Positions 5,326 through 25,046 are shown, numbered from the stretch's first letter. The stretch: DNA of 56,522 nucleotides from Candidatus Zixiibacteriota bacterium (GCA_050117845.1 JASFLY010000017.1:1-56522); one strand, 5' to 3'. A program made the numbers and translations. Notes: generated from the letters alone by a model not told the origin.

Positions 5326-5351
5326 ACGGCCATTTGCGAAAGGAGCCGCCG

Positions 5352-7200: not shown

Positions 7201-7221
7201 AGGAGGGACGCGGGGGAGGAT

Positions 7222-8226: not shown

Positions 8227-8264
8227 CGGCCTTAAAGGCGTAAAGAAGGAGAGCGGGGGAGGAA

Positions 8265-9095: not shown

Positions 9096-9586
9096 AAATC
9101 GCAACCATAGTAATGGGGGTAATCGTCGCGATCCTGATTGGCGTCGCGATATGGCGGGGCGAAGGTTCCTTGCAGAAGGGCCTTACCTTCGGCGGCAAGA
9201 CCTTCCTGAGTACGTTGCCGCTGCTCGTTTTCGCCTTCGCGATAGCCGGCCTGGTGCAGGTCCTGGTGCCGCGCGAGTTCATCGTAAAGTGGTTGGGTGA
9301 AGGGTCGGGGATTAAAGGCATTTTAATAGCGACGGTCGTGGGCGGCCTGACGCCCGGCGGCCCCTACGTCTCGTTCCCCATCGTGGCCTCGCTGTACAAG
9401 GCCGGCGCGTCGGTGGGGACGGTGGTGGCCTTCGTGACGTCGTGGTCGGTATGGGCCTTCAACCGCCTCCCTTTGGAGATAGGACTGGTCGGCCCCAAAC
9501 TCGCGATCGCCCGTTTCCTGACGACGCTCATCGTCCCGCCGCTCGCGGGCCTGTTCGCGCAGGCCGTGTTCGGCCGGTGGCTCTAA
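9092..9586 (+). CDS. small polytopic membrane protein, putative permease (DUF318/ArsP-like half-size)
   Basis: Four or more hydrophobic helices. The GGLTPGGPYVSFPIVASLYKAG motif resembles predicted-permease families. Overlaps the upstream stop (ATGA). Confidence 0.4.
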   Translation: MKIATIVMGVIVAILIGVAIWRGEGSLQKGLTFGGKTFLSTLPLLVFAFAIAGLVQVLVPREFIVKWLGEGSGIKGILIATVVGGLTPGGPYVSFPIVASLYKAGASVGTVVAFVTSWSVWAFNRLPLEIGLVGPKLAIARFLTTLIVPPLAGLFAQAVFGRWL

Positions 9587-9607
9587 TCGTTCCTTGCGGA
9601 GTGACGT

Positions 9608-11071
9608 ATGAATTTCGAATATCGTAACATCTTCGAAGTCCCCGGCGGCCCGGCGTTCCGGGTGGGCCGGACGGATACCCCCGACGTTAAACCCGAGGAG
9701 TTCTTCCCGAAAGAGTTCCTGCGGACGGACCTGGGGCCGATGGCCGACCACGCCGAGGGCGAGGTCGTCCGGCACTACACCCGGCTGGCGGCGATGAACT
9801 TCGGCGTCGATTCCGGCTTCTATCCCCTCGGGTCCTGCACCATGAAGTACAACCCCAAAATAAACGAGGAAGCGGCGCGCCTGCCCGGCTTCGCTAACCT
9901 GCACCCCTACGCCACGCCCCGGGACGCGGCGGGAGCGCTGCGCCTGATGTACGAACTCGAGCGCGACCTCTCCGAGATATGCGGCATGGCGGCCTTCACG
10001 CTCTGCCCGGCGGCCGGGGCCCACGGCGAACTCGTGGGGATGCTCATGGCCCGGGCGTACCACCGGGCGAACGGCGGCGACGGCCGCAACGTCATGCTTA
10101 TCCCCGACTCGGCCCACGGGACCAACCCCGCGTCGGCCCGGATGGTGGGCTTCGACGTCGTATCGGTGAAGTCGACCGACGAGGGTCTCATCGACCTCGA
10201 CGACCTCAAATCCAAATTGGACGACCGCGTCGCCGGCATGATGATAACGAACCCGAATACGCTGGGCCTCTTCGAGCGCGACATCCTGGAGATTGCGAAG
10301 CTCGTGCACGGGGCCGGCGGCCTGCTCTACTACGACGGCGCGAACCTGAACGCCATCGTGGGCCGCGCCCGCCCCGGCGACATGGGTTTCGACATCTGCC
10401 ACGTCAACCTGCATAAAACGTTCTCGACGCCGCACGGCGGCGGCGGCCCGGGCTCCGGGCCCGTCGGCGTCTCCGCCCGGCTGGTCGATTTCCTCCCGGT
10501 CCCGCGCGTCGTCAAGGAAGGCGACGGCTACGGTTGGGCCGAGGCCTGCCCGAAGTCCATAGGCCGGATCCGTTCCTTCGCCGGGAACTTCGGCGTGCTC
10601 GTCAAAGCCTACACGTATATACGGAACCTCGGCGCGGCGGGTCTCAGGAACGTGGCCGAGGCTGCGGTGCTGAACGCCAACTACCTCCGGGCCCGGGTGG
10701 CCGAGTTCCTGGAAGTGGCTGGCTCCGCCCCCTGCATGCACGAGTTCGTGGCGTCGTCGGAGAAGTTCGGCCGCGGTTCCGCCGGGGATATAGACAAGGC
10801 ACTGATAGACGCCGGCTACCACCCGCCGACGACTTACTTCCCGCTGGTGGTGCACGAGGCGCTCATGATCGAGCCGACCGAGACCGAATCCCGCGAGACG
10901 CTGGACGCCTTCGCGGATACGCTCGCGGCTATCGTGGCCGAGATGGAGAAGGACCCGCACGCCTACGCCGACGCGCCGCTGTTGGCGCCGGTGCGGCGTC
11001 TCGACGAGGCCGGGGCCGCCCGCAACCCCGTCCTCACGCAGATGATGGCCGAGGCGGCGGGCGAAGAGTAA
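9608..11071 (+). CDS. gcvPB: glycine dehydrogenase (decarboxylating) subunit 2
   Basis: HYTRLAAMNFGVDSGFYPLGSCTMKYNP ... SAHGTNPASA are the PLP-binding-half motifs of the P protein. Confidence 0.9.
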   Translation: MNFEYRNIFEVPGGPAFRVGRTDTPDVKPEEFFPKEFLRTDLGPMADHAEGEVVRHYTRLAAMNFGVDSGFYPLGSCTMKYNPKINEEAARLPGFANLHPYATPRDAAGALRLMYELERDLSEICGMAAFTLCPAAGAHGELVGMLMARAYHRANGGDGRNVMLIPDSAHGTNPASARMVGFDVVSVKSTDEGLIDLDDLKSKLDDRVAGMMITNPNTLGLFERDILEIAKLVHGAGGLLYYDGANLNAIVGRARPGDMGFDICHVNLHKTFSTPHGGGGPGSGPVGVSARLVDFLPVPRVVKEGDGYGWAEACPKSIGRIRSFAGNFGVLVKAYTYIRNLGAAGLRNVAEAAVLNANYLRARVAEFLEVAGSAPCMHEFVASSEKFGRGSAGDIDKALIDAGYHPPTTYFPLVVHEALMIEPTETESRETLDAFADTLAAIVAEMEKDPHAYADAPLLAPVRRLDEAGAARNPVLTQMMAEAAGEE

Positions 11072-11075
11072 GGCC

Positions 11076-11741
11076 GTGGCGGACTGGAGCGGGTACCGCT
11101 TGATAGTCGACGGCCCGGGCGAGGCGCGGGAGAACATGGCCCGGGACGAGGCCCTGCTGGCGGCCTACCGGGCCGGGGAGATTCCGCCCACGTGGCGGCT
11201 CTACACCTGGCGGGAGCCGGCGGTCACGTACGGCCGGTCCCAGGAAGCGCCGGCGTGGCCCGCCGAGGTAACCGTGTTGCCCCGGGTGAGCGGCGGCGGT
11301 TACGTCCCCCACGGCGCGGACTTCACGTACTGCGTCGTGCGGGAGCGGCGGACCGGTTTCAGCAATTACGAGGACATCGTGGCCGCGGTGGCCGCGGCGC
11401 TGGCGGAGTTAGGCGTTCCGGCGGACGTGTGGCGGAGCGGCCCGGCGGGCGCGGCGGGTCGTTGTTTCGCGTCGCTCGCGCCCTTCGACGTCCACGTCAA
11501 GGGCAGGAAGATAGCGGGTTGCGCCCAGCGCCGTTTCCGCGACGCGATACTGCATCACGGCTCGATTGCGGCGGCGGTTCCGGCCCCGGCCTTGCGCGAC
11601 CTCGGCCTCTGGGACGAGCGGCGAACGGTAACTCTGGAATCCATCGCCGGCCGAAGCGTCGAATTGGCGGAGTTCGCCGAGGCGCTGGCGGCGATTACGG
11701 GTATGCAAATAACTCCGGTTTCAAGCGCAGAGGATAAGTAA
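11076..11741 (+). CDS. lipoate-protein ligase / octanoyltransferase family protein (LplA/LipM-like catalytic domain)
   Basis: YRLIVDGPGEARENMARDEALL resembles the LplA N-terminus. Has the BPL/LplA/LipB-type domain. Sits in the GcvH context. Confidence 0.65.
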   Translation: MADWSGYRLIVDGPGEARENMARDEALLAAYRAGEIPPTWRLYTWREPAVTYGRSQEAPAWPAEVTVLPRVSGGGYVPHGADFTYCVVRERRTGFSNYEDIVAAVAAALAELGVPADVWRSGPAGAAGRCFASLAPFDVHVKGRKIAGCAQRRFRDAILHHGSIAAAVPAPALRDLGLWDERRTVTLESIAGRSVELAEFAEALAAITGMQITPVSSAEDK

Positions 11742-11743
11742 TT

Positions 11744-12655
11744 ATGAAAATAAAAAAAGTGATACTCTCGGGATGCGCGCTAATAATCGTAGCGGCCCTC
11801 GTCGGATGCGGCAAGGGACAGGCCCCCGAGCCCGAGGTAGTGGCCCGCGTGGGCGACGCCGTCCTTACGCTGGACGAACTCAACCGGCTGGACGAGGACC
11901 AGCATCGCGTAAAGATGCCGACCTACCTCACCAAAGAGGAGCTGATGGAGGAGTGGATTCGCAGCGAGGTCCTCTACCAGAACGCGGTGGAGGAGGGCGT
12001 TCCGGAGGAGAAGGAATGCGCCTGGCGGATCCGCAACAGCGCCAAGGGGATCGTCATCCAGCGGTACTGGGAACTCAACGTCTACGAAAAAAAGGCCGAA
12101 GTCAGCGACGAGGAAGCCCTGGCCTGGTACGAGGATAATAAAGAAAAAAGCTACCGGGCCAAGGAAACCGGCGTCTGGCTGAGGCGGATACTCCTTAATT
12201 CCGAAGGGGCGGCCGCCGACGTTTTGGCGCGTATCGGTAAGGGCGAGGACTTCGCCGCCGTGGCCTTGGACGTTTCGGTTACGCCCGAAAAGCTGAAAGG
12301 CGGAGACCTGGGATATCGGCGCCTGGGCGACGTCAGCCCGACTTACCGGGACGCCGTCGGGAAGATGAAGGAGGGCGAGGTCGCCGGGCCGTTCCGCCTC
12401 GGTCAATTCTACGCCGTATTGAAATTGGAAGACCGGGTGGATGCGGGCGATTACCTGAAGCCCGAGGGCATCGGGATGGAAAGCCTGCGCGATAAGGCGA
12501 AGGTCGAGATGTGGCGCGAGAAGGCGGCCCGCATCGCCGCGGACCTCGGCGCCGCGGCGGACGTCGAACGTCACCCGGAGCGGATCCCCGAGCCGGCCGT
12601 GGATATGGCGTTGGGGGAGGATCTTAAACCGGGGACCGCCGAAAAGGGCGAATAG
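11744..12655 (+). CDS. lipoprotein with parvulin-type peptidyl-prolyl isomerase domain (PrsA/SurA-like)
   Basis: Lipobox LVGC. The LKGGDLGYRRLGDVSPTYRDAV ... GEVAGPF segment resembles the PpiC/rotamase domain. Confidence 0.6.
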   Translation: MKIKKVILSGCALIIVAALVGCGKGQAPEPEVVARVGDAVLTLDELNRLDEDQHRVKMPTYLTKEELMEEWIRSEVLYQNAVEEGVPEEKECAWRIRNSAKGIVIQRYWELNVYEKKAEVSDEEALAWYEDNKEKSYRAKETGVWLRRILLNSEGAAADVLARIGKGEDFAAVALDVSVTPEKLKGGDLGYRRLGDVSPTYRDAVGKMKEGEVAGPFRLGQFYAVLKLEDRVDAGDYLKPEGIGMESLRDKAKVEMWREKAARIAADLGAAADVERHPERIPEPAVDMALGEDLKPGTAEKGE

Positions 12656-14128
12656 ATGGACCGAGACCTCGGATCGATTCAGGAAGCGCGCGATTGTATC
12701 CGGGCCGGCCGCAAGGCCGCGGAGGCGTTCGCGCACTTCGGCCAGGAGGCCGTCGACCGTATAGTCGCGGCCATGGCGCGTGCGGCCGAAGAGGCCGCCG
12801 TCCCCCTGGCGGAATCGGCGGCCGAGGAAACGGCCTTCGGCGTCGCCCGGGATAAAATACAGAAAAACCTCTTCGCGGCGCGCAACGTATACGAGTACAT
12901 AAAGGATATAAAGACCTGCGACGTAATCGCGGACGACCCGGCGACCGGCGTCACCGAGATAGCGAGCCCCGTGGGCCTCATCGCCGGCATAACGCCTACG
13001 ACCAACCCCACGTCGACGACCATATATAAAGCGCTGATTTCGGTAAAAGCGCGGAACGCGGTAGTTTTCTCGCCGCACCCGGCGGCGCTGCGCTGCTCGG
13101 GAGAGGCGGCCGCGATATTGGCCCGGGCCGCGACGGCCGCGGGAGCGCCCGAGGGCGTAATAACGTGGTTGACGCAGCCCACGGCCGAGGCCGCCGAGGA
13201 GTTAATGCGGCACCGCGACGTGGACCTTATCCTCGCGACCGGCGGGATGGCGATGGTGCGGGCGGCGTACTCCTCCGGGAAGCCGGCGTACGGCGTCGGT
13301 CCGGGGAACGTCCCTGCCTATATCGACCGCTCGGCCGACGTGCCGCGGGCCGTCGCCGACATCATATCGTCCAAAACGTTCGACAACGGCGTCATCTGCG
13401 CGTCGGAGCAGGCGGTGGTTTGCGACGCGCCGGCGCGGGACGAGGCGACCCGGGAATTCGAGCGGGGCGGCGCGGCCTTCCTCTCGGCCGAACAGAAACG
13501 CGCGGTCGCGAAAGTCCTCGACGGCGGCGGCCGCCTCAACCCGGCGGTCGTGGGGCAGCCGGCGAGCCGCATCGCCGAGATGGCCGGCTTCGCCGTCCCG
13601 GCGGGCACGAAGCTTTTAATCGGATACGAGGACCGGGTGGGCCCGGACTTCCCGTTCTCCTGGGAGAAGATATCGCCCGTGCTGGCCTGGTACGATACTA
13701 CCGACTGGAAGGCCGGGTGCGAGCGCTGCATGGAAATCCTGGCGTACGGTGGCATGGGGCATACGCTCTCGCTGCACGCGCGCGACGAGGAGGTCATCCG
13801 CGAGTTCGGCCTCCGCAAGCCCGTCTACCGCGTCGTCGTCAACACGCCCTCCTCCCAGGGCGCCATCGGCCTTACGACGGGCCTCGCGCCGGCGCTGACG
13901 CTCGGCTGCGGGACGTTGGGCGGCAATATCACGTCGGACAACATTACGCCCCGGCACCTCATGCACGTCAAGCGCGTGGCCCGGGGACGGGCGCCGGTTA
14001 CTCCCGAGAGTACGGCTTGCCCGGCGGTCGAAGGCGGCGACTCGCCCTGCGGCGGCACGGCCGACCCGGTCCTGGTGGAAAAGATAGTACGGGAGGTCCT
14101 CCGGGAATTGGGAAAAGGGGCGAGTTAG
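12656..14128 (+). CDS. CoA-acylating aldehyde dehydrogenase (EutE/PduP/AdhE-N family), BMC core enzyme with C-terminal encapsulation-peptide-like helix
   Basis: SKTFDNGVICASEQAVV catalytic-Cys motif of acetylating ALDHs. C-terminal DPVLVEKIVREVLRELGK amphipathic helix follows a low-complexity linker. Confidence 0.85.
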   Translation: MDRDLGSIQEARDCIRAGRKAAEAFAHFGQEAVDRIVAAMARAAEEAAVPLAESAAEETAFGVARDKIQKNLFAARNVYEYIKDIKTCDVIADDPATGVTEIASPVGLIAGITPTTNPTSTTIYKALISVKARNAVVFSPHPAALRCSGEAAAILARAATAAGAPEGVITWLTQPTAEAAEELMRHRDVDLILATGGMAMVRAAYSSGKPAYGVGPGNVPAYIDRSADVPRAVADIISSKTFDNGVICASEQAVVCDAPARDEATREFERGGAAFLSAEQKRAVAKVLDGGGRLNPAVVGQPASRIAEMAGFAVPAGTKLLIGYEDRVGPDFPFSWEKISPVLAWYDTTDWKAGCERCMEILAYGGMGHTLSLHARDEEVIREFGLRKPVYRVVVNTPSSQGAIGLTTGLAPALTLGCGTLGGNITSDNITPRHLMHVKRVARGRAPVTPESTACPAVEGGDSPCGGTADPVLVEKIVREVLRELGKGAS

Positions 14129-14620
14129 ATGGTCCTCTTCGTACGCCGCATCGTCGACGCGTTCCGAAGACGGCCCCTGGATTTGCACGTTTTCTGCCTG
14201 GTCCTCTTCATGATCGGCGCCGTTTTCGTCTTCGGGTACCAGGTGCGCGTCTTTTGGGAGGTCGTGATTACGGACCGGACGCCCCTGGAGGGGACGCCCG
14301 TCTTCCAGGCGCTCACCGGCATGACGCTGTTGACCGACCTGGTGTGGTCGCCGTTTCTCGTGGCTTCGTCGATAGGTATCTGGCTGTACCGGAACTGGGG
14401 CCGCAAGCTCGGTTTCATCATCGGCGGCGTCATGGCCTATATGGGGACGCAGGGGCTGCTATTCTTCCCGCTGACGCGCCGCTTCGGCGTCGACGCGGTG
14501 GAGGACTTCACTCGCTATTACGAATTCACGGCCTATATGGCCTACTACGCAATTTACGCGGCCGTCGGGTTCACGATGATATTTTACCTCTGGTTCCGAA
14601 AAATAGACTTGAGCCGGTAG
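14129..14620 (+). CDS. hypothetical 4-TM integral membrane protein embedded in the BMC locus
   Basis: Four hydrophobic helices and aromatic-rich. No family recognised. Confidence 0.5.
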   Translation: MVLFVRRIVDAFRRRPLDLHVFCLVLFMIGAVFVFGYQVRVFWEVVITDRTPLEGTPVFQALTGMTLLTDLVWSPFLVASSIGIWLYRNWGRKLGFIIGGVMAYMGTQGLLFFPLTRRFGVDAVEDFTRYYEFTAYMAYYAIYAAVGFTMIFYLWFRKIDLSR

Positions 14621-14676
14621 CATTTATTTGATAAATAGCGTTAAACGTATTCATACCATACGCGAAAGGAGCGAGG

Positions 14677-14976
14677 ATGCCCTCTAAAACGGAGATGGCC
14701 CTCGGAATGGTGGAAACGCGGGGCCTCGTGGCCGCAATCGAAGCGGCGGACGCGATGGTCAAGGCGGCGAACGTTCGACTCTTGGACAAGGTGCGGGTCG
14801 GCGGCGGCCTCGTAACCGTACTGGTGCGCGGCGAGACCGGCGCGGTCAAGGCCGCGACGGAGGCCGGCGCGGCGGCGGCGGCCAAGGTCGGCGAACTCGT
14901 ATCGGTCCACGTTATCCCGCGGCCCGACGACCACGTGGAATTTATACTCCCGGAAGAAGTCGGGAAAAAAGGCTAA
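14677..14976 (+). CDS. BMC shell protein, single-domain hexamer type (BMC-H, PduA/EutM-like)
   Basis: [29 protein letters not shown] is the canonical PF00936 BMC-domain signature. AGGAG RBS. Confidence 0.9.
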
Positions 14977-14995
14977 GCGGGGAAAACGTTAAGAC

Positions 14996-15823
14996 ATGGC
15001 CGCGGACGACCATGAAGCCGTTGTACGGGCTGTAACCGCGGCGGTGATGGCGAAGCTGGGGGCCGGCGGGCCTCGGACTTTCGAGGCGCCGGTGGGCGTT
15101 TCCGGCCCCCACATTCACCTGACGCCCGGGGACGTGGCGACGCTGTTCGGCGCCGGCGCGCGTTTGTCGGTAATGAGGCCGCTGGTGCAATGCGGCCAGT
15201 TCGCGGCGAACGAAGCGGTGACTATCGTCGGGCCGGCTTCGTCGCTTTCCGGCGTTCGCGTGGTCGGCCCGACGCGCGAGAGCACGGTGGCGGAACTTCT
15301 GGCGGGGGACCTGGTGCGGCTCGGCCTGGACCCGGACGTACGGGCGGGCGAGCCGTTCGCCGTTACCGTCGCGGGACCCGCGGGCGTCGTCCACCTTCCG
15401 GCGGGGGGCGTCGTGGCCCGGCGGCACCTCCACGTCCCGGCGGCCAGGGCCGGAGAATTGGGCGTGACGGACGGGATGGACGTCTCCGCGCGGATGGGTG
15501 CGCCGGGGCGGCGGGTTACGTTCCACGACGTCCTGGTGCGCGTGAGCCCGGAGGCCGGCCTGGAACTCCACGTCGACCGGGAGGAGGCCAACGCTTGCGG
15601 CGTCCGGACGGGAGCCGCGGCCGAGATCGTGATGGGCGCGGCCGTTCCCGCGGCGAGCGGGGTGCCGGCGAAAACGGCCGGAAGGCCCCTCGTAACCGAG
15701 GAAGACGTCGTGCGGGCCCACGCGGAAGGCCGGGAGCCCCGGCTGGCGGGCGCCATTCTTACGCCTTACGCCCGGGACGCCGTCCGTAAATTATTCCCGG
15801 AGTTGCTTAACTTTTTAGAATGA
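14996..15823 (+). CDS. phosphate acyltransferase PduL/EutD-type (phosphotransacylase of metabolosomes)
   Basis: Two PduL repeats: VGVSGPHIHLTPGDVATLFG and VVARRHLHVPAARAGELGV. N-terminal EAVVRAVTAAVMAKLG is amphipathic and encapsulation-peptide-like. Confidence 0.8.
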   Translation: MAADDHEAVVRAVTAAVMAKLGAGGPRTFEAPVGVSGPHIHLTPGDVATLFGAGARLSVMRPLVQCGQFAANEAVTIVGPASSLSGVRVVGPTRESTVAELLAGDLVRLGLDPDVRAGEPFAVTVAGPAGVVHLPAGGVVARRHLHVPAARAGELGVTDGMDVSARMGAPGRRVTFHDVLVRVSPEAGLELHVDREEANACGVRTGAAAEIVMGAAVPAASGVPAKTAGRPLVTEEDVVRAHAEGREPRLAGAILTPYARDAVRKLFPELLNFLE

Positions 15824-15946
15824 GTTATAATCCTATAAGGAAAGAAACATAATGAACGGGACCGGGGCCGGTTCCGCTAACGCGCGACGCGGCCTCCGGC
15901 GCATACGGCCGACGCGTAGGCCGGTTTATTATTGGGGTTCGATACG

Positions 15947-16219
15947 ATGATGCGGATCGCGGAAGTGGTGGGCAACGTGTGGGCGACGCGCAAGGTTGAA
16001 AGCGTGCGCTCTCTCAAGATGCTGCTCGTTCGACCCTTGAACGCCGACCTAAAACCGACCGACGAAATGTGGGTCGCGGCGGACGTGGTGGACGCCGGCG
16101 CCGGCGACCGGGTCATCGTCGCCGTAGGCCGGGCGGCCCGGCTGGCGGTGGGCGACGACGACGCGGCCGTATCCGCGGCCGTTGTAGGCGTCGTGGACTC
16201 GCACGAGGTGAAGGCGTAA
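15947..16219 (+). CDS. BMC vertex protein (BMC-P, EutN/CcmL/PduN family)
   Basis: MMRIAEVVGNVWATRK N-terminus and ~90-aa size are typical of PF03319 pentamer proteins. Confidence 0.8.
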   Translation: MMRIAEVVGNVWATRKVESVRSLKMLLVRPLNADLKPTDEMWVAADVVDAGAGDRVIVAVGRAARLAVGDDDAAVSAAVVGVVDSHEVKA

Positions 16220-16226
16220 CGGCCCG

Positions 16227-17537
16227 ATGACCTTCGTCGAGACCATTAGAAACGCCGGAATCCTGGGGGCCGGGGGAGCCGGCTTCCCGGCTCACGTGAA
16301 GTACGGCCGGGAGGCCGAGATACTTATTATTAACGGTGCGGAGTGCGAACCCCTCTCCCGCAAGGACGCGGCCATCCTGGCCCACCGGGCCGCCGACGTA
16401 GTAACCGCGGCCGGTACGTTGCGGGAGGAACTCCGGGCCCGGGAAGTAATCCTGGCGGTCAAGGGGCCCGCGGCGACCGAAATAAGCGGCCTTTACGGCG
16501 GCGTCAGGATACACCCTTTGCCGGAGGTGTATCCCGCCGGCGACGAGGCCGTCCTGGTATACGAGGTGGCGGGCCGTCGCGTTCCGGCCGACGGCGTTCC
16601 GCCCGACGTGGGCGTCGTTGTCTCGAACGTCGAGACGGTGCTCAACGTCGCCCGGGCGGGCCGGGGAGCGCCGGTGCTCACGACCTGGGTGACGGTGGCG
16701 GGGGCGGTGCGCGAGCCCTTCACCGCGGAGGTTCCGGTCGGGACGGGCGCGCGTTTTCTCATAGACGAGGCGGGCGGCCCCGCGGTCGCCGATTACGTCG
16801 TCTTTGAGGGGGGACCGATGATGGGCGAGGAGGTGGACCCGGCCTCGTTCGGCGTCGGGCCCACGACCGGTTTGATCCTCGTCCTGCCGGCGGGCCATCC
16901 GGTGGTGGCGCGAAACCGCCTGCCGCTCGAGCACGTACGGACCATCGCCGGTAGCGCCTGCACGCAGTGCCGCGACTGCACCGAGATGTGCCCGCGGTAC
17001 CTCCTGGGCTACGACGTTACGCCCCACCTTTCGATGCGGCGCTTCTTCAGTTGGGGCGACGACGCCGCGGCCGCGGGGGAGTTTTTCGCGAACGCCGCCG
17101 GCTGTACCGGCTGCGGCCTTTGCGAATTGTACGCCTGCCCGATGGCCATATCGCCTCGTCGCGTCCAGCTTCACTTGCGGGAAATCGTAACGGCGGCGAG
17201 GGCCGAAGGGGCCGGCGAGGTGCACGCCGACCGTTCGGGGCGGCAGGTCCCGGCGGGGCGGCTCAAGAAGCGCATAGAAGTGGACGAGTACGACCGGCCG
17301 GCGCCGCTGCGGGAACTCGCCGAGGCGCCCCGGACGGTGACGATAAAGCTGGTTCAACCGTACGCCGGCGCGCTCGACGTACTCGTGCGGGAGGGGGACC
17401 GCGTGGAAGCGGGGCAGGTTCTGGCGAAGCCGAAAGAGGGCGACGACCGGGCCGTACCGGCGTACGCGAGCATCGGCGGCCGGGTGGCCGCGGCCGGCCC
17501 GGGCGAAGTGACGATAGACCGAACGCAGGTGGCCTAA
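16227..17537 (+). CDS. RnfC/PduS-like Fe-S flavoprotein (SLBB + NADH-binding motif + two 4Fe-4S clusters)
   Basis: GILGAGGAGFPAHVKY is the RnfC/NuoF/PduS motif. Cys clusters CTQCRDCTEMCP and CTGCGLCELYACP. Confidence 0.75.
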   Translation: MTFVETIRNAGILGAGGAGFPAHVKYGREAEILIINGAECEPLSRKDAAILAHRAADVVTAAGTLREELRAREVILAVKGPAATEISGLYGGVRIHPLPEVYPAGDEAVLVYEVAGRRVPADGVPPDVGVVVSNVETVLNVARAGRGAPVLTTWVTVAGAVREPFTAEVPVGTGARFLIDEAGGPAVADYVVFEGGPMMGEEVDPASFGVGPTTGLILVLPAGHPVVARNRLPLEHVRTIAGSACTQCRDCTEMCPRYLLGYDVTPHLSMRRFFSWGDDAAAAGEFFANAAGCTGCGLCELYACPMAISPRRVQLHLREIVTAARAEGAGEVHADRSGRQVPAGRLKKRIEVDEYDRPAPLRELAEAPRTVTIKLVQPYAGALDVLVREGDRVEAGQVLAKPKEGDDRAVPAYASIGGRVAAAGPGEVTIDRTQVA

Positions 17538-17564
17538 CGCGTTGCGGTTAAGGAGATGTTGGCG

Positions 17565-18275
17565 ATGATAAGGAAAACGGCGATAATGCTGCTGGCGCTC
17601 GCGACGTTCGCGGCGGTAGGGTGGGCCGACTACGAGAAGCCGGACCTCGAGAAAGCGGACATCGACAAGGACGACCTCGCCCGTTTCAAGGAGGCGTACA
17701 CCCGCTACCTCGAGGGCGTCGAGTTCGAAAAGGAAGGGTCCTGGGTGTCGGCGAGCAAGTCGTACCGCGCGGCGGTGGATATTTACAATAACTATCCGGA
17801 CGCGCAGTACGGCCTGGGCCGGATGGCCCTGCGGCTGGGCCGCCTCGACGAGGCGGAGGATGCTTTGCGGGAAGCCCTTACCCTCAAGCCCGAACTGCAC
17901 CAGGCCCACACCGAACTCGGCAGCGTGCATTACCGGCGCGGCGATTACAATAAAGCTGCGTTCGAATATAAGGAAGCGCTCAAGCACGACTCGAGCGACG
18001 TCGTGGCCCGCTACAACCTGGGTAACGCATACCGGAACCTGGACAAGCCCAAGAACGCGATCGACCAGTACGAAAAGACGCTCGCGCTCGACGCTTCTTA
18101 CGTGGACTGTTACTACAACATGGCGCTGGCCTACGAGGACCTGGAAGACGCGGACAAGGCCATCACGGCGTACGACAGGTTCATAGAGGCGGCGCGGGAC
18201 GACCCCGATCAGGCCGAGTGGGTAAATCGGGCGAAAGAGTATAAACAGAAATTATTGGACGAGAAGGGTAAATAG
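17565..18275 (+). CDS. TPR-repeat protein, probably lipo/secreted, inside the BMC locus
   Basis: Signal-like IMLLALATFAAVGW. Multiple 34-aa TPR units (AQYGLGRMALRLGRLDEAE, AHTELGSVHYRRGDY, ARYNLGNAYRNLDK, CYYNMALAYEDL). The first ATG (17556) lacks RBS spacing, so the second was chosen. Confidence 0.65.
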   Translation: MIRKTAIMLLALATFAAVGWADYEKPDLEKADIDKDDLARFKEAYTRYLEGVEFEKEGSWVSASKSYRAAVDIYNNYPDAQYGLGRMALRLGRLDEAEDALREALTLKPELHQAHTELGSVHYRRGDYNKAAFEYKEALKHDSSDVVARYNLGNAYRNLDKPKNAIDQYEKTLALDASYVDCYYNMALAYEDLEDADKAITAYDRFIEAARDDPDQAEWVNRAKEYKQKLLDEKGK

Positions 18276-18833
18276 TTGACGCTGCCGGAAGAGGCCATCG
18301 GCCTGGTCGAGTTCTCATCCATCGCCCGGGGCATCGAAGCCGTGGACGCGATGGTGAAGGAGGCGGACGTCCGGCTGCTGGCGGCGCGGACGGCGTGCTC
18401 CGGCAAGTACATCGGCCTCGTGGCCGGGGCGGTCGCGGCGGTGAAATCGGCGGTGAGCGCCGGCAAGGATATGGGGCGAGGGCATTACGTAGACGGTTTG
18501 GTAATCCCGAACGTGCACAAACAGGTCCTGGCCGCGGCGGCCGGGACGGTGGAAGTACCCGAAAAGGGGGCCCTGGGGATAATCGAGACGTTTTCGCTGG
18601 CGTCCGCCCTTTTGGCGGCGGACGCGGCGGTGAAGGCCGCGCCGGTGACGCTTCTGGAAGTGCGCCTCGGCACGGGCATAGGCGGTAAAGGTTTCGCCAC
18701 GCTGGTGGGCGAGACGGCGGCGGTAACGTCGGCCGTGGGCGCGGGCGCTCGAGAGGCGTCGGCCCGGGGCCTTCTGGTCGCGACCGCGGTAATCCCGGCT
18801 CCGTACCGGGAAGTGATGGATAAACTCATATAA
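18276..18833 (+). CDS. tandem-domain BMC shell protein (BMC-T, PduT-like)
   Basis: Two BMC domains: IGLVEFSSIARGIEAVDAMVKEADVRLL and LGIIETFSLASALLAADAAVKAAPVTLLEV. TTG start assumed. Confidence 0.75.
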   Translation: MTLPEEAIGLVEFSSIARGIEAVDAMVKEADVRLLAARTACSGKYIGLVAGAVAAVKSAVSAGKDMGRGHYVDGLVIPNVHKQVLAAAAGTVEVPEKGALGIIETFSLASALLAADAAVKAAPVTLLEVRLGTGIGGKGFATLVGETAAVTSAVGAGAREASARGLLVATAVIPAPYREVMDKLI

Positions 18834-18859
18834 CCGGTAACTGGCGGTATGATTAAGAG

Positions 18860-19147
18860 ATGACTGTCAAGGAGATAATCAACGTAAAGGGTAAGCACCT
18901 CGGCTATTTCGAAGCCTGGTGCAAGGCGTGCGGCATTTGCATCGCGCTGTGCCCGAAACACGTCTTCGACACCGGGGCCGACGGCAAGCCCATCGTGGCC
19001 CGGCCGGCCGATTGCATAAACTGCGGCATGTGCGAAATCATGTGCCCCGATTTCGCGATAGGCTGGTACGAGGACCCGTTGTGTGACGAAGAGTTGAAAG
19101 AGGCTCACAAACGCAGTGGCGACGACGAGTGGGCCAAGCACCGCTAA
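18860..19147 (+). CDS. 2-oxoacid:ferredoxin oxidoreductase delta subunit (2x[4Fe-4S] ferredoxin)
   Basis: CKACGICIALCP and CINCGMCEIMCP motifs in a ~95-aa protein immediately upstream of the alpha subunit. Confidence 0.75.
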   Translation: MTVKEIINVKGKHLGYFEAWCKACGICIALCPKHVFDTGADGKPIVARPADCINCGMCEIMCPDFAIGWYEDPLCDEELKEAHKRSGDDEWAKHR

Positions 19148-19189
19148 CCAATCGTTCTTAACTCCGTTCATAAGGTAGCGTGCAGTAAA

Positions 19190-20323
19190 ATGACCTTGAT
19201 GCAAGGGAACGAGGCGATTGCCCGGGCGGCGTTGGACGCCGGCGTGCGTTTTTTCGCCGGTTATCCGATAACGCCCTCGACGGAGATCGCCGAAATCATG
19301 TCGGTGGAACTCCCCAAGGTAGGCGGGAAGTTCCTTCAGATGGAGGACGAGATAGCGTCGCTGGCCGCGGTCATCGGCGCCTCTCTCACCGGGGCGCGGG
19401 CCATGACGGCCACGAGCGGCCCCGGCTTCTCTCTCATGCAGGAGAACCTCGGCTACGCGTACATGACCGAGGTTCCTTGTTTAATCGTTAACGTAATGCG
19501 GGGCGGCCCCAGCACCGGCCTTCCCACCGGCCCGTCCCAGGGCGACGTTATGCAGGCGCGCTGGGGTACCCACGGCGACCATCCGGCCATTTCGCTGGTG
19601 CCGTCGTCCGTCCTCGATTGCTACAAGCAGACCGTGCGGGCCATTAACCTGGCCGAACGTTTCCGGATGCCCGTCATACTCCTGCCGGACGAGGTGGTGG
19701 CCCACATGCGCGAGGACGTGACCCTGCCCGACCACGCCGACGTCGTCCCCCGCGCCGAACCGGAAGTCCCGTACGAGTGGTACAACCCGTACGACGACTC
19801 CACGACCGACGTGGCGCCGCTCGCGTCTTTCGGGACGGGGTTCCGCTTCCACGTCACCGGCCTGGTGCACGACCGGGCGGGCTTCGCCACAACGGTGCCG
19901 GCGGAAGTCGACCGGGCGATACGCAATCTCAAACGCAAGATGGACCGTTTCCGCAAGGAGATAATACAGGTGGAGCGCCTGCACCTGGCCGACGCCGACA
20001 TCGTCGTCGCGGCCTACGGCATCTGCGCCCGTTCCGCCGAGGCGGCCACGCTCAAGGCCCGCGAGAAGGGCTACCGTGTCGGCTGCATCAATATGAAGAC
20101 CGTATGGCCGTTCTGCTTCAAACTCATCCAGCGCGTGGCACAGACGGCCCGGGCGATAATCGTCCCGGAGATGAACCTCGGCCAGCTCGTGCGCGAGTTC
20201 GAACGCGCCGTATGCGGCAAAACCCAGGTTATACCTCTGAACCGGGTCGACGGCGAGGCGATAACGCCGCGCCAGATTATGGACGTAATCAACGAACTCG
20301 GCCCCGGCGGAGGTGAGGCCTAA
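19190..20323 (+). CDS. 2-oxoacid:ferredoxin oxidoreductase alpha subunit
   Basis: MTLMQGNEAIARAALDAGVRFFAGYPITPSTEI ... ATSGPGFSLMQE match the KorA/PorA/OorA family. Confidence 0.85.
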   Translation: MTLMQGNEAIARAALDAGVRFFAGYPITPSTEIAEIMSVELPKVGGKFLQMEDEIASLAAVIGASLTGARAMTATSGPGFSLMQENLGYAYMTEVPCLIVNVMRGGPSTGLPTGPSQGDVMQARWGTHGDHPAISLVPSSVLDCYKQTVRAINLAERFRMPVILLPDEVVAHMREDVTLPDHADVVPRAEPEVPYEWYNPYDDSTTDVAPLASFGTGFRFHVTGLVHDRAGFATTVPAEVDRAIRNLKRKMDRFRKEIIQVERLHLADADIVVAAYGICARSAEAATLKAREKGYRVGCINMKTVWPFCFKLIQRVAQTARAIIVPEMNLGQLVREFERAVCGKTQVIPLNRVDGEAITPRQIMDVINELGPGGGEA

Positions 20324-21171
20324 TGGAGAAACCGCGCGAATTGAATCCGTCGGAACTCATGCACGAGTTCCTGCGCCATAAAAAGAAGTTCCCCCACGTG
20401 TGGTGTTCCGGCTGCGGCATCGGGACGACGATGGGCGCTATTATCCGCGCCATCGCCGATACCGAACTCGACCGCGACCGGGTCGTAATGGTCTCGGGCA
20501 TCGGCTGCAGCTCGCGTATGCCCATATACGTAGACTTCAACACGCTCCACACCACCCACGGCCGGCCCATCGCCTTCGCGACCGGCATCAAGACCGCCCG
20601 CCCCGACCTCGAGGTCATCGTGGTCACGGGCGACGGCGACGCCGCCGCCATCGGCGGCAACCACCTCATCCACGCCTGCCGGCGCAACATCAACCTCACC
20701 GTCATCTGCATCAACAACAACATCTACGGCATGACCGGCGGCCAGGCCTCGCCCACGACGCCGCCCGGCAAGTTCGCGACGACCGCCCGCTACGGCGACT
20801 TCGAGCGGGACTTCGATTTATGCGATCTGACGGCCGGGGCCGGGGCGGCCTTCGTCGCCCGCGGCGCGGTATACTACGCGAGGCAACTCCAGAAACTGAT
20901 CCAGCAAGCCCTCGTCAAGAAGGGATTCGCCTTCGTCGAGGTCGTCTCACAGTGCCCGACCTACTACGGGCGTTTTAATAAATTCAAATCGCCGGTGGAA
21001 ATGCTCTACTGGCAACGCGACAATACGGTGAACGTTAAGACGGTGGGGAAGATGAAACCGGAAGAGCTCGAAGGCAAGCTGTTAACCGGCGTCCTGGCGG
21101 ACCACGATTATCCCGAATTCACGGAGAAGTACGACAAGCTGATCCAGGATTTGGCGGCGGGGAGGAAGTAA
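20323..21171 (+). CDS. 2-oxoacid:ferredoxin oxidoreductase beta subunit (TPP-binding)
   Basis: WCSGCGIG ... VVTGDGDAAAIGGNHL ... CINNNIYGMTGGQ match the TPP/Fe-S beta-subunit motifs. The start overlaps the alpha stop. Confidence 0.85.
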   Translation: MEKPRELNPSELMHEFLRHKKKFPHVWCSGCGIGTTMGAIIRAIADTELDRDRVVMVSGIGCSSRMPIYVDFNTLHTTHGRPIAFATGIKTARPDLEVIVVTGDGDAAAIGGNHLIHACRRNINLTVICINNNIYGMTGGQASPTTPPGKFATTARYGDFERDFDLCDLTAGAGAAFVARGAVYYARQLQKLIQQALVKKGFAFVEVVSQCPTYYGRFNKFKSPVEMLYWQRDNTVNVKTVGKMKPEELEGKLLTGVLADHDYPEFTEKYDKLIQDLAAGRK

Positions 21172-21173
21172 TA

Positions 21174-21743
21174 ATGGTAGTCGTGAGATTCGCCGGATAC
21201 GGCGGCCAGGGACTCCTAACGGCCGGCCTGATACTAGCGGACGCGGCCGGCATGTATGATAAGAAAAAGGTCGTCCAGACGCAGAGTTACGGCGCCGAGG
21301 CGCGAGGGGGAGCGAGTCGCTCCGACGTCATCGTCTCCGACGAAGACATCGTATTCCCCAAGCCCGACCACCTCGACGTGCTGGTGGCCATGAACCAACT
21401 CTCGGTCGACAAGTACTCCTCGGCGTTGTCCGAGGGCGGAACGCTGATAGCCGACGCGACCTTCGTCACGACGGTTACCTTCACGAACGCGTATCTCATA
21501 CCGTTCACCGCCGTCGCCCGCGACAAGATAGGCCGGGAGATAGTCGCCAACGTCGTGGCCCTCGGGGCCCTGGTGGAGCTCGAGAAGGTCGTTTCCAAGA
21601 AAGCGGTTACGAAGGCCCTCGAGCAGCGCATCCCGCCGGGCGCCCTGGATATCAATCGCAAGGCGTTGGAGGCCGGCTTCAAGGCGGGCCGGGCTTGCGC
21701 GGCCGAGCGCGAAAAGGCGGTCGAGGACTTCGACATCGTATAG
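21174..21743 (+). CDS. 2-oxoacid:ferredoxin oxidoreductase gamma subunit
   Basis: FAGYGGQGLLTAGLILADAA ... QSYGAEARGG match the PorG/KorC/OorC family. Gene order delta-alpha-beta-gamma as in OorDABC. Confidence 0.8.
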   Translation: MVVVRFAGYGGQGLLTAGLILADAAGMYDKKKVVQTQSYGAEARGGASRSDVIVSDEDIVFPKPDHLDVLVAMNQLSVDKYSSALSEGGTLIADATFVTTVTFTNAYLIPFTAVARDKIGREIVANVVALGALVELEKVVSKKAVTKALEQRIPPGALDINRKALEAGFKAGRACAAEREKAVEDFDIV

Positions 21744-21755
21744 CGAAGGAGATTC

Positions 21756-22160
21756 ATGGAAAAAACGCTCTTCATGATCAAGCCGGACGCCACCGCCCGG
21801 GGCCTCGTCGGCGAGTTGGTCGCGCGGATGGAAAGCGAAGGTTTCACGCTGGAGCGACTAGAGCTGCAGCGTTTCGACCGCCCGCGGGCCGAGGCATTCT
21901 ACGGCGTCCATAAGGGCAAACCCTTCTTCGAGAGCCTGGTGGAATACATTACGTCGGGGCCCGTGGTGCCGATGGTCCTTTCCGGCGAGGGCGTCATAGG
22001 CCGCGTCCGGGAGATAATGGGGGCCACGAATCCGGCCGAGGCCGCGTCCGGCACGATCCGCCGGAAGTACGCCGAGTCCTTGGAGCGCAACTCGGTTCAC
22101 GGTTCGGACAGCCCGGCCTCGGCGGAGCACGAAATTCAAGTAGCCTTCGGAGGGCCGTAG
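21756..22160 (+). CDS. ndk: nucleoside diphosphate kinase
   Basis: TLFMIKPDATARGLVGELVARMESEGF ... NSVHGSDS includes the active-site His region. Confidence 0.9.
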   Translation: MEKTLFMIKPDATARGLVGELVARMESEGFTLERLELQRFDRPRAEAFYGVHKGKPFFESLVEYITSGPVVPMVLSGEGVIGRVREIMGATNPAEAASGTIRRKYAESLERNSVHGSDSPASAEHEIQVAFGGP

Positions 22161-22162
22161 GC

Positions 22163-22717
22163 ATGGCCGCGTCGCGGTGGAACCTGGCCAATCTGCTCAC
22201 GCTGTGCCGCCTGCCGCTGGCGGCGGCGGGGGCGTACTTCCTGTGGGGCCGGGAGTACCCGGGCGTGGGCGTGGCGTTCCTCGCCGCGGCGGCGCTGACC
22301 GATATTTTGGACGGCGTGGCGGCCCGAGCGCTGAATCAGATAACCGATTTCGGCAAGAAGATTGACCCTATCGCCGACAAGATATCCATCGCCGCCGTGG
22401 GCGTCGTCCTCGTCCTGCGATACGGCGTACCGTGGTGGATCTTCGCCGTCGCGGTGGCCCGGGACGTGGCGATCCTGATATCGGCCGCGATAATCATCTC
22501 GCGGCGCGAGGTGGTCGTACCGTCCAATTTCTGGGGCAAGGCCGCGGCGCTCATGATGGTGCTCTACGGCATCGCCGCCGTCGTCGCGACCGGGTCCTGG
22601 ATTACCGTAGTATTGATGTGGCTCGTGCTGGCGGCGATTATCATCTCCACCGCCTCGTACGGTTACGATTTCTACCGGGTGCTGTCCTCGGGCGCGCCCG
22701 GCCGCCGCGAGAAGTAA
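22163..22717 (+). CDS. CDP-alcohol phosphatidyltransferase family protein (PgsA-like)
   Basis: DILDGVAARALNQITDFGKKIDPIADK follows the D-G-x2-A-R-x8-G-x3-D-x3-D pattern. Multi-TM. Confidence 0.7.
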   Translation: MAASRWNLANLLTLCRLPLAAAGAYFLWGREYPGVGVAFLAAAALTDILDGVAARALNQITDFGKKIDPIADKISIAAVGVVLVLRYGVPWWIFAVAVARDVAILISAAIIISRREVVVPSNFWGKAAALMMVLYGIAAVVATGSWITVVLMWLVLAAIIISTASYGYDFYRVLSSGAPGRREK

Positions 22718-22788
22718 CGCGGCTAGGTTTTTCGTTATTTAACCGTTCATTTCATTCCACAAAGGAGTCGGGACTTTTCATGGCGTAT

Positions 22789-23616
22789 AAGATACTCGCG
22801 CGGGACGATATTACGAGCGAGTCGGTCCGTATGGTCGTCGCCGCGCCGCACGTGGCCCGAAAATGCGATCCGGGTCAGTTCATCATGTACCGGTTGGACG
22901 AACGGGGCGAACGCATCCCGCTCACTATCGCCGATTTCGACCGCGATGCCGGGACTATCACTATCATCTTCCAGAAGGTCGGGAAGAGCACCTACCATCT
23001 GGCGGAGTTCCAGGCCGGCGACGAGATTCTCGATTTCGTCGGGCCGCTGGGCCGCCATATGGACGTGGGGAAGCTCGGCACCGTGGCCTGCCTCGGCGGC
23101 GGCCTCGGCATAGCGCCCATTTACCCCAAGGTCCGCGCCCTTAAGGCGGCGGGGAACACCGTCGTGTCCGTAATCGGCGCGAGGCGCAAGGACCTCGTCA
23201 TACTCGAGGAAGAGATGCGTTCCCACAGCGACGAACTCTTCGTCACCACTGACGACGGTTCGTACGGCCTTCACGGCTTCGTCACCGACCAGCTCAAACA
23301 GCTCATCGACGAAGGCCGCAAGTTCGACGCCTGTCTCGCCGTAGGCCCCATCCCGATGATGGAAGCGGTTTGCCGACTCACGAAGGAACTCGGCCTCCCG
23401 ACTCTCGTCAGCCTCGACACCATCATGGTCGACGGGACCGGGATGTGCGGTTCCTGCCGCGTAACCGTGGCGGGCGAGACCAAGTTCGCGTGCGTGGACG
23501 GGCCGGTCTTCGACGGCCACCAGGTGGATTGGGATGAGGCGAAAGCGCGGCAGGTCCGGTACCGGCCGCAGGAGTGCCAGGCGTTGGAGAAATTCCAGAA
23601 GGAGCAGGGTCAATAA
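22789..23616 (+). CDS. nfnA: NfnA/SudB-like FAD/NAD-binding [2Fe-2S] oxidoreductase subunit
   Basis: MAYKILARDDITSESVRMVVAAP... is the ferredoxin-NADP-reductase-like fold. C-terminal CGSCRV...C cluster. Family of DHOD electron-transfer subunit / NfnA. Confidence 0.7.
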   Translation, partial: KILARDDITSESVRMVVAAPHVARKCDPGQFIMYRLDERGERIPLTIADFDRDAGTITIIFQKVGKSTYHLAEFQAGDEILDFVGPLGRHMDVGKLGTVACLGGGLGIAPIYPKVRALKAAGNTVVSVIGARRKDLVILEEEMRSHSDELFVTTDDGSYGLHGFVTDQLKQLIDEGRKFDACLAVGPIPMMEAVCRLTKELGLPTLVSLDTIMVDGTGMCGSCRVTVAGETKFACVDGPVFDGHQVDWDEAKARQVRYRPQECQALEKFQKEQGQ

Positions 23617-23618
23617 TA

Positions 23619-25046
23619 ATGGCTGACAAAGACAACAAAGACAAGCCGGCGAAGCCGAAAATAGTCGCCGAGAAATATAAAATGAAGGAACAGCCGCCGG
23701 GCGAGCGTATCCATAATTATAAAGAAGTCCCGTACGGATACGACGTCGAGACGGCGGTCAAGGAAGCCGAGCGCTGCTTGCAGTGCAAGAACGCGACCTG
23801 CGTCGCGGGTTGTCCCGTGGAAATAGATATTCCGGGATTCGTGAAGGCCATCGCGGAGCGTGACTTCGCCGAGGCCATCGGCGTAATGAAGAAGTACAAC
23901 AACCTCCCCGCGGTCTGCGGCCGCGTCTGCCCGCAGGAAGAACAGTGCGAAAAGGTGTGCGTCCTCAGCAAGAAGTTCGAGCCGGTCGCCATAGGCCGCC
24001 TCGAGCGTTTCATCGCCGATTACGACTACGAGCATAAAGTCGCCCCGCCGCCGGAGATAGCGCCGGCCAAGGGCAAGAAGGTCGCCATCGTGGGCGCGGG
24101 GCCCGCGGGCCTCACGGTAGCCGGCGACCTCGCCCGCATGGGCTACGACGTTACGATGTTCGAGGCGTTCCACGCCACCGGCGGCGTCCTCCGGTACGGC
24201 ATTCCGGAGTTCCGTCTCCCCAAGGCCATCCTCGACATGGAAGTGGACTACGTCCGGTCGCTCGGCGTCAAGGTCGAGTGCAACATGGTTATCGGCAAGG
24301 TCTACACCGTTAAGGAGCTCTTCGACGAACTCGGCTTCGAGGCCGCGTTCATCGGCACCGGCGCCGGCCTGCCTCGCTGGATGAACGTCCCCGGCGAGAA
24401 CCTCATCGGCGTGTACTCGTCGAACGAGTGGCTTACCCGCGTCAACCTGATGCGCGCCTTCGAGTTCCCCGAATACGATACGCCGATATGGGCCGGCAAG
24501 AACGTGGCCGTCATCGGCGGCGGCAACACCGCCATGGACTCCGTCCGGACCGCCCTGCGCATGGGCGCCGAGCGCGCGGTAATTTACTACCGCCGTAGCG
24601 AGGCCGAGATGCCCGCCCGTATCGAGGAGATCCACCACGCCAAGGAAGAGGGCGTGGAGTTCAACTTCCTCGTGGTGCCGGACAAGGTACTCGGGACCGA
24701 AGACGGCTGGGTCCGCGGCATGGAACTCTGCCAGATGGAACTGGGCGAGCCCGACGACAGCGGCCGGCGGCGGCCGGTGCGCTGCGAGGGGTCGCAGTTC
24801 GAGATAGAGTGCGACATGATCGTCGTCGCGGTGGGCACGTATCCCAACCCCATCATCCCGGAGACCACGCCCGAACTCAACCTCACGAAGTGGGGAACCA
24901 TAGAGGTCGACGAGGAAACCGGCATGACGAACGTGGCAGGCGTCTTCGCCGGCGGCGACATCGTGACCGGCGGCGCGACCGTCATCTCGGCCATGGGGGC
25001 CGGAAAGCGGGCGGCGCGCGGCATCGACGCGTACCTCAGCAAATAA
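23619..25046 (+). CDS. nfnB: NfnB / glutamate-synthase small-subunit-like NAD(P)H oxidoreductase (two 4Fe-4S, FAD, NADPH)
   Basis: CLQCKNATCVAGCP and CGRVCPQEEQCEKVC clusters. GAGPAGL and GGGNTAMD Rossmann motifs. Confidence 0.75.
   Translation: MADKDNKDKPAKPKIVAEKYKMKEQPPGERIHNYKEVPYGYDVETAVKEAERCLQCKNATCVAGCPVEIDIPGFVKAIAERDFAEAIGVMKKYNNLPAVCGRVCPQEEQCEKVCVLSKKFEPVAIGRLERFIADYDYEHKVAPPPEIAPAKGKKVAIVGAGPAGLTVAGDLARMGYDVTMFEAFHATGGVLRYGIPEFRLPKAILDMEVDYVRSLGVKVECNMVIGKVYTVKELFDELGFEAAFIGTGAGLPRWMNVPGENLIGVYSSNEWLTRVNLMRAFEFPEYDTPIWAGKNVAVIGGGNTAMDSVRTALRMGAERAVIYYRRSEAEMPARIEEIHHAKEEGVEFNFLVVPDKVLGTEDGWVRGMELCQMELGEPDDSGRRRPVRCEGSQFEIECDMIVVAVGTYPNPIIPETTPELNLTKWGTIEVDEETGMTNVAGVFAGGDIVTGGATVISAMGAGKRAARGIDAYLSK

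Follow-up and report, generated by a model that had tools for sequence, protein, structure and literature searches.

A KorDABC-type 2-oxoacid:ferredoxin oxidoreductase next to a small microcompartment gene cluster is probably a cytosolic enzyme in inherited synteny

We examined a stretch of 56,522 nt from a Candidatus Zixiibacteriota bacterium (GCA_050117845.1, JASFLY010000017.1:1-56522; hereafter the window), in which the genes for a four-subunit 2-oxoacid:ferredoxin oxidoreductase (OFOR) begin just downstream of the shell genes of a bacterial microcompartment (BMC). An earlier note, made from the sequence alone, had read positions 18860-21743 as the delta, alpha, beta and gamma subunits of such an enzyme and had proposed a functional link to the compartment. 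The reading of the genes was borne out, as all four open reading frames (ORFs) lie on the plus strand and belong to the expected families:

18860..19147 (+): korD/oorD-like delta subunit, ferredoxin-like, 95 aa, two [4Fe-4S] motifs, in the 4Fe-4S dicluster (Fer4) families by Pfam
19190..20323 (+): korA/oorA-like alpha subunit, 377 aa, Pfam POR_N 5e-67 and PFOR_II 2e-18
20323..21171 (+): korB/oorB-like beta subunit, 282 aa, Pfam TPP_enzyme_C 6e-33, predicted to bind thiamine pyrophosphate (TPP) and the proximal [4Fe-4S] cluster
21174..21743 (+): korG/oorC-like gamma subunit, 189 aa, Pfam PF01558 POR 4e-35

The alpha, beta and gamma genes do overlap or abut, as had been said: the korA stop and the korB start share 1 nt, and korB and korG are separated by 2 nt. 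The KorA translation has the YPITP motif, read as GYPITPST. KorB has the TPP motif GDG...NN (GDGDAAAIGG...CINNN) and the proximal-cluster cysteines CxxC...C, seen as WCSGCG and GIGCSS, and KorD has two CxxCxxCxxxCP motifs. The alpha domains with YPITP, the beta motifs and the separate gamma and delta genes place these loci in the Kor/Oor family. The genes run D-A-B-C, which is the OorDABC-type order named in the note and is the same in all the related kor loci that we compared. korD was the first gene of the operon in every relative, with or without BMC genes nearby.

We consider it probable that this is an ordinary cytosolic 2-oxoglutarate OFOR of the KorDABC/OorDABC type and that its BMC neighbourhood is inherited synteny, the enzyme being neither cargo nor a dedicated partner of the compartment. 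With NCBIfam models, KorA reached 556.7 bits for NF006412 (2-oxoacid:acceptor oxidoreductase subunit alpha), which has a curated cut-off of 411. The top model for KorB was NF007207 (2-oxoglutarate ferredoxin oxidoreductase beta; 308 bits for a cut-off of 364), and the top models for KorD were OGOR_delta and OorD, each scoring under its cut-off. The POR, VOR and IOR models were far weaker (PorA, for example, gave 96 bits against 398 for OorA). The enzyme of the window is a member of the family that is not assignable by score to the Oor equivalogs.

We also compared the subunits with solved structures. KorA matched 1yd7 (385 bits), OorA of Helicobacter pylori (8ys5_A, 286 bits) and the 2-oxoglutarate:ferredoxin oxidoreductase (OGOR) of Magnetococcus marinus (6n2n, 228 bits). 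The best match of KorB was H. pylori OorB (8ys5_C, 262 bits, aligned over 15-276), with 175 bits for the M. marinus OGOR beta subunit. KorG matched 3on3 (168 bits) and H. pylori OorC (8ys5_B, 96 bits), and KorD matched H. pylori OorD (8ys5_D, 38 bits). After H. pylori Oor, the next relatives were M. marinus OGOR (6n2n) and the Sulfolobus OFORs, and the pyruvate, oxalate and indolepyruvate enzymes scored far below the Oor-type ones. The characterised four-subunit complex that fits best is H. pylori OorDABC (8ys5, solved by cryo-EM, and 8ys6; PMC12307629), which has four separate subunits in the order D-A-B-C like the window and was matched in all of its chains. However, the similarity is only moderate, and the window differs in having BMC genes upstream and ndk downstream. 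M. marinus OGOR (KorAB, 6n2n/6n2o) belongs to the same family but is of the two-subunit fusion type.

H. pylori OorDABC turns 2-oxoglutarate and CoA into succinyl-CoA (PMC12307629). The same paper describes the cluster cysteines of OorB and gives no residue-level substrate determinants, so the specificity has to be taken from similarity and gene context. As for context, sucC-sucD directly adjoin kor orthologues of about 58-60% identity in two unrelated lineages (upstream in locus L090, downstream in L135). Because the nearest characterised enzymes are specific for 2-oxoglutarate and because of this sucCD adjacency in outgroups, the substrate pair is most likely 2-oxoglutarate and succinyl-CoA. 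The sucCD-linked korDABC operons come from uncultured relatives, one of them named Desulfobacterota, and are of the same family, although the operon in the window has no sucCD neighbour.

To compare gene order we used tblastn with 17 proteins of the window in every related locus that we retrieved. A metagenome scan with the last shell gene before korD (BMC-T) gave 34 loci, about half of which were only BMC-H-like and uninformative. Three roughly equidistant lineages emerged from the comparison of loci: clade A (identity to the window of at least 80% for BMC-T and at least 73% for KorA), L109 (BMC-T 70%, KorA 67%) and clade B (BMC-T 68%, aldehyde dehydrogenase (AldDH) 60%, with a 549-kb contig among its members). 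In clade A, korD directly follows BMC-T in 16 of the 16 contigs that reach past BMC-T. An AldDH homologue of 79% identity, labelled Candidatus Coatesbacteria, lies on the 2.35-Mb chromosome CP070633.1 (L133), where the gene order is the same as in the window; the lineage of the window is accordingly Candidatus Coatesbacteria. However, clade A keeps its entire neighbourhood, from gcvPB, lplA and a peptidyl-prolyl isomerase (PPIase) gene through the BMC genes, kor, ndk and the transferase gene to an NfnAB-like pair, GAPDH and PGK. Because the whole neighbourhood is conserved, the adjacency in clade A tells us no more than any other two neighbouring genes of the array would. L109 likewise has BMC-T followed by korDABC-ndk.

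Clade B keeps the order gcvT-gcvH-gcvPA-gcvPB-lplA-PPIase-AldDH-...-PduS-TPR-like-BMC-T, but there is no kor downstream. What follows BMC-T is a GmrSD/methylase pair with a PTA gene, or hypothetical genes. The kor genes appear to be elsewhere in the same organisms. JGI samples 3300056903 and 3300057055 have clade B BMC contigs together with korDABC contigs that are 65% identical. The longest of the kor contigs, L084 from sample 3300056901, has korDABC-ndk-CDP-alcohol transferase without a BMC gene. Upstream of its korDABC are sulfatase, glyoxalase and protease-like genes, with a gap of 490 nt. The tetranucleotide correlation between the kor contigs and the clade B BMC contigs is 0.92-0.93, as high as that of the clade B contigs among themselves, and outgroups gave 0.07-0.3.

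Co-localisation wherever this type of BMC occurs is therefore not what we found, since it fails in clade B. The earlier note had named OFOR genes beside unrelated genes in all relatives as one finding that would count against its link, and clade B and L084 provide this in part; the adjacency itself stands in clade A (16/16) and L109. The units that are truly conserved are [gcv-lplA-PPIase-BMC] and [korDABC-ndk-CDP-alcohol transferase], and the junction of BMC-T and korD is a break point of synteny. As a background set we used a contig scan with the PduS-like protein, which gave only relatives 32-42% identical from other phyla. A Kor-type OFOR lay within 10 kb in 0 of these 80 PduS-containing BMC loci (1.27 Mb of flanks in total).

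A recurrent link of Kor and BMC genes across phyla was considered for KSB1. One KSB1 genome (L134, JAPDQQ010000002.1) has BMC-P and DeoC (1911-3013) 3.5 kb upstream of korDABC, with a transpeptidase gene and an opposite-strand gene in between, and in a second (L136) the 10 kb around korDABC are free of BMC genes. Given the opposite-strand gene in the one and the lack of BMC genes in the other, we treated this as coincidence.

We then looked at the termini of the enzyme. When KorD, KorA, KorB and KorG were aligned between five BMC-adjacent loci and two loci without a BMC neighbour, there was no terminal extension specific to the BMC-adjacent group. Both termini of KorA, KorB and KorG align co-linearly between the two groups, and the KorG tail ...DFDIV has a counterpart in the BMC-less L084 orthologue (...NLEIV). 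In both groups KorD ends in a short, charged tail that is variable. Hydrophobic moments of the Kor termini were 0.34-0.61, against 0.86 for a C-terminal helix of AldDH, VEKIVREVLRELGK. As the termini are co-linear with those of BMC-less orthologues and the moments are low, we see no sign of encapsulation. The check for an encapsulation peptide that the note had proposed thus came out negative for every OFOR subunit, by alignment and by the hydrophobic-moment scan.

For the junction and what follows the kor genes, the features are:

18276..18833 (+): PduT-like tandem-BMC shell protein (BMC-T), BMC domain twice (3e-42), best NCBIfam model eut_PduT
18834..18859 (+): spacer of 26 nt between the end of BMC-T at 18833 and the start of korD at 18860
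21756..22160 (+): nucleoside diphosphate kinase (ndk), NDK 3e-49
22163..22717 (+): CDP-alcohol phosphatidyltransferase, PF01066 4e-31, last gene of the conserved kor-ndk block
22704..22723 (+): terminator-like GC hairpin of 6 GC pairs with a T-rich tail, at the top of the list for 11000-24000, a consensus match only

A consensus scan found no promoter-like or terminator-like sites in the 26-nt spacer, which agrees with the note's remark that the gap holds no terminator, and the spacer is too short for a terminator plus a promoter. The scan gave no more sites in total than it did in shuffled sequence, so it cannot define the operon. The hairpin at 22704-22723 falls at the end of the kor-ndk-transferase block. 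Spacer lengths could be read only for loci in which a BMC-T C-terminus of ...DKLI or ...DELI was recovered; in these, the clade A spacers are 19-28 nt and unrelated in sequence. The spacer of L133 is about 41 nt if the ATT start that the source gives for korD is accepted, and that of L109 is about 209 nt. On the starts themselves, the korD genes of two clade A relatives, L133 (16090-16203) and L081 (8769-8882), have a conserved N-terminus without ATG, GTG or TTG, and the source call for L133 begins with ATT.

Spacing in this genome has to be read with care. Across the 18 same-strand genes from arsP to the CDP-alcohol transferase gene, all gaps are between -1 and 108 nt; the gap between the lipoprotein PPIase gene and AldDH is 0 nt, and those among korG, ndk and the transferase gene are 2-12 nt. 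Unrelated genes and genes for exported and membrane proteins are packed equally tightly in the array, so tight packing is not evidence for a pathway; it is a property of the genome. The gene after korG is ndk in clade A, L109 and the BMC-less L084, and the CDP-alcohol transferase gene follows ndk in clade A and L084. The co-transcription of the kor and BMC genes that the note had suggested is thus plausible in clade A, where the gap is short, but the spacing behind it is not specific to this junction.

The picture that we propose is the following. The block korD-korA-korB-korG-ndk-CDP-alcohol phosphatidyltransferase would have been inherited directly 3' of a small metabolosome (AldDH, PduL, PduS/MNdh, PduT, BMC-H, BMC-P) in clade A, the Candidatus Coatesbacteria clade from which the window comes. 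Both lie inside a long same-strand array of otherwise unrelated housekeeping genes, and upstream transcription may continue into the kor genes there. The OFOR, with TPP and three [4Fe-4S] clusters, would be cytosolic and would interconvert 2-oxoglutarate plus CoA and succinyl-CoA plus CO2 in central metabolism, with ferredoxin as its redox partner. If this is right, the lesson is that little about function can be read from close same-strand spacing in this compact Coatesbacteria genome. Were the pairing functional instead, it would name an outside partner for the traffic of electrons or acyl-CoA across a BMC shell.

Several observations weigh against our interpretation. The best specific NCBIfam models for beta, gamma and delta are those of 2-oxoglutarate Oor/Kor, but the scores are under the cut-offs, and none of the Oor equivalog cut-offs is reached (OorA 398/579, OorB 308/364, OorC 104/216 and OorD 37/93 bits). 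The top hit of KorA, 1yd7 from Pyrococcus, was deposited as 2-keto acid:ferredoxin oxidoreductase subunit alpha, a name that does not specify the substrate. That the clade B BMC contigs and the kor contigs come from one genome is something we infer from shared samples and composition, with no single contig carrying both. The adjacency is kept down to about 67% KorA identity in L109, which makes two of the three deep lineages and is somewhat above trivial drift. Finally, the short spacer of clade A implies shared transcription and may mean that expression is coupled to that of the BMC genes.

The alternatives depend on the neighbouring BMC genes, which in the window are:

12656-14128 (+): AldDH, acylating aldehyde dehydrogenase family, TIGR02518 at 615 bits, best as an acetaldehyde dehydrogenase
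14129-14620 (+): hydrophobic membrane protein of 163 aa with no family match, following AldDH with a 0-nt gap and preceding BMC-H
14677-14976 (+): BMC-H, by family match
14996-15823 (+): PduL, by family match
15932-16219 (+): BMC-P, by family match
16227-17537 (+): PduS/MNdh-like flavoprotein with Complex1_51K, SLBB and Fer4 plus a C-terminal RnfC_N
17556-18275 (+): TPR protein with a signal peptide-like N-terminus, MLAMIRKTAIMLLALATFAAVGWA, between the PduS-like and PduT-like genes

The cluster has one BMC-H and one BMC-P gene, and no alcohol dehydrogenase and no signature aldehyde-producing enzyme. At the C-terminus of AldDH, a linker leads to the amphipathic helix VEKIVREVLRELGK, whose hydrophobic moment was the strongest among the termini scanned, and the N-terminus of PduL, EAVVRAVTAAVMAKL, has a helix resembling an encapsulation peptide. 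The putative membrane protein and the TPR protein, with its predicted signal peptide, cannot be cargo. The pore cysteine of BMC-T lies in CSGK (translation TACSGKYIG), and the published PduT-type pore motif is CP(G/S)K (PMC11626177). The BMC-T of L109 likewise has CSGK, so that the cysteine is retained and the proline replaced.

These genes in part resemble the NAD+-recycling module MNdh/BMC-T(SE) (PMC11626177), with which the window shares a PduS-like RnfC_N protein, a PduT-like pore cysteine and a cluster lacking alcohol dehydrogenase (ADH). They differ from it in the TPR gene that stands between the two genes and in the CSGK pore in place of CP(G/S)K. The likeness concerns the neighbouring BMC and not the OFOR. 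It does lead to the alternative that survives best, although we consider it unlikely: Kor, by way of its delta subunit or of the ferredoxin pool that it serves, would be the preferred outside partner of a PduS/MNdh-PduT module that exports the electrons of lumenal NADH. The direction could be out of the BMC, or into it from the oxidation of 2-oxoglutarate. The presence of PduS-like and PduT-like proteins with a pore cysteine in a cluster without alcohol dehydrogenase counts for this and against our own interpretation, as does the suggestion that the outside acceptor of the PduS/PduT conduit is ferredoxin or flavodoxin (PMC11626177). The gene right after BMC-T encodes a 2x[4Fe-4S] protein, and the adjacency is kept in clade A and L109. 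However, kor operons with no BMC in the vicinity also start with korD as a rule, which makes KorD a subunit of the OFOR rather than a free carrier. In clade B, PduS-TPR-PduT occurs without adjacent kor, and the other PduS/PduT loci gave no Kor-type OFOR in their vicinity (0/80). NADH is at about -320 mV and ferredoxin-dependent 2-oxoglutarate synthesis at about -500 mV, so the potential of NADH is too weak to drive that synthesis without an energy input. A form of this idea for Coatesbacteria, in which the Kor complex, by its ferredoxin-like delta subunit or by the ferredoxin served by it, is the outside redox partner of the conduit and the 19-28-nt junction of clade A reflects the coupling, strikes us as very unlikely. 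If it were true, a metabolosome without ADH would be electrically joined to the 2-oxoglutarate/succinyl-CoA node.

Equally hard to credit is the model of the earlier note, in which the OFOR feeds acyl-CoA to the encapsulated PduL or reductively carboxylates the acyl-CoA made by AldDH. OFORs are well established to produce and to consume acyl-CoA, and the adjacency and probable co-transcription in clade A are what this model would lead one to expect. But the closest characterised enzymes and the outgroup contexts point to succinyl-CoA as the product and not to acetyl-CoA or propionyl-CoA, on which PduL acts; succinyl-CoA is not known as a substrate of PduL. The Kor subunits have no encapsulation peptide, and the adjacency is broken in clade B. 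In addition, a passage of PMC11626177 that cites Erbilgin 2016 describes metabolosomes as having a private CoA pool in the lumen that cycles between AldDH and PduL, and because of this cytosolic acyl-CoA would not be expected to feed PduL. The proposed acyl-CoA link from OFOR to BMC is in our view unsupported.

Least likely of all is a link to a C4 pathway in which succinyl-CoA from Kor is reduced to succinate semialdehyde by the acylating AldDH: the family that AldDH matches (TIGR02518, 615 bits) also holds CoA-dependent succinate-semialdehyde dehydrogenases, and clostridial SucD reduces succinyl-CoA in this way, but AldDH is best read as an acetaldehyde dehydrogenase, its encapsulation-peptide-like helix and the nearby PduL indicate an oxidative metabolosome core, the annotated part of the window has no 4-hydroxybutyrate pathway genes, and the adjacency is broken in clade B.

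The note had also held that a pairing of OFOR and BMC would be novel. That claim is weakened, since the OFOR domains pfam01558, pfam17147 and pfam02775 are already listed among the enzymes of the BUF3 type of BMC (Sutter 2021 Supplementary Data 2, PMC8217296). BUF3, found mostly in Clostridiales, has no AldDH, and its enzymes include an aminotransferase (pfam00266), a deamidase (pfam13382) and a CoA-binding protein (pfam13380) (PMC8217296). BUF3 and the window are alike in that OFOR genes are associated with a shell-gene locus, but the window has an AldDH/PduL metabolosome without the BUF3 enzymes. The cluster does not belong to BUF3: AldDH and PduL are present, there is no pfam13382 or pfam13380 protein in it, and the sole pfam00266 match is the weak one given by the glycine-cleavage P subunit upstream.

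For us the more interesting object is the minimal metabolosome itself, which lacks a signature enzyme and whose link to glycine-cleavage genes is stable. Glycine-cleavage genes, a lipoate-protein ligase gene and the lipoprotein PPIase gene lie directly upstream of the BMC genes (4222-18833 in the window; also L092/L093, L096 and L133). The association of the BMC with glycine cleavage is deeper than that with the OFOR because clades A and B both have it, AldDH of the latter being 60% identical. In the Sutter 2021 catalogue, Coatesbacteria shell proteins are entered only as 'fragmented ... omitted', which leaves the neighbouring metabolosome unclassified.

Some further observations concern the BMC cluster. 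At its C-terminus PduL extends about 70 aa past the PTAC domain (...LVTEEDVVRAHAEGREPRLAGAILTPYARDAVRKLF...), and its C-terminal 72 aa had no Pfam match. The 108-nt gap between PduL and BMC-P (15824-15931) is the largest in the cluster. In it, at 15906-15923, lies a terminator-like hairpin with GTTTATTATT after it, which may act as an attenuator within the cluster or mark the boundary of a transcript. The 163-aa protein is kept at 74-82% identity in clade A, is replaced by a 618-aa pentapeptide-repeat protein in L092 and is absent from L096. A homologue of the TPR protein, at 39-43% identity, is in the same position in L109, L092 and L096, and an exported protein is odd for a BMC operon. In L081, a relative of 86% identity, the AldDH region (2720-4131) is called as a 141-aa minus-strand ORF and a 304-aa ORF with no Pfam hit. 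AldDH is found there by tblastn only from 3235 on, and it may be truncated or frameshifted, or the assembly may be in error.

Elsewhere in the window, positions 22432-25046 hold an NfnAB-like or sulfide-dehydrogenase-like pair (DHODB Fe-S/NAD-binding and Fer4_20/Pyr_redox_2), which is a candidate ferredoxin-linked enzyme. The pair is 3' of the kor-ndk-transferase block in clade A and not in L084. Between gcvPA and the ArsP-like permease gene there are two ORFs with weak ExbD-like matches (7222-9095), which are absent from that position in L133, and gcvPA and gcvPB are split by the permease gene in both the window and L133. A SelB selenocysteine elongation factor gene (43492-45426) and a tyrosine recombinase/integrase gene (54443-55627) are also present.

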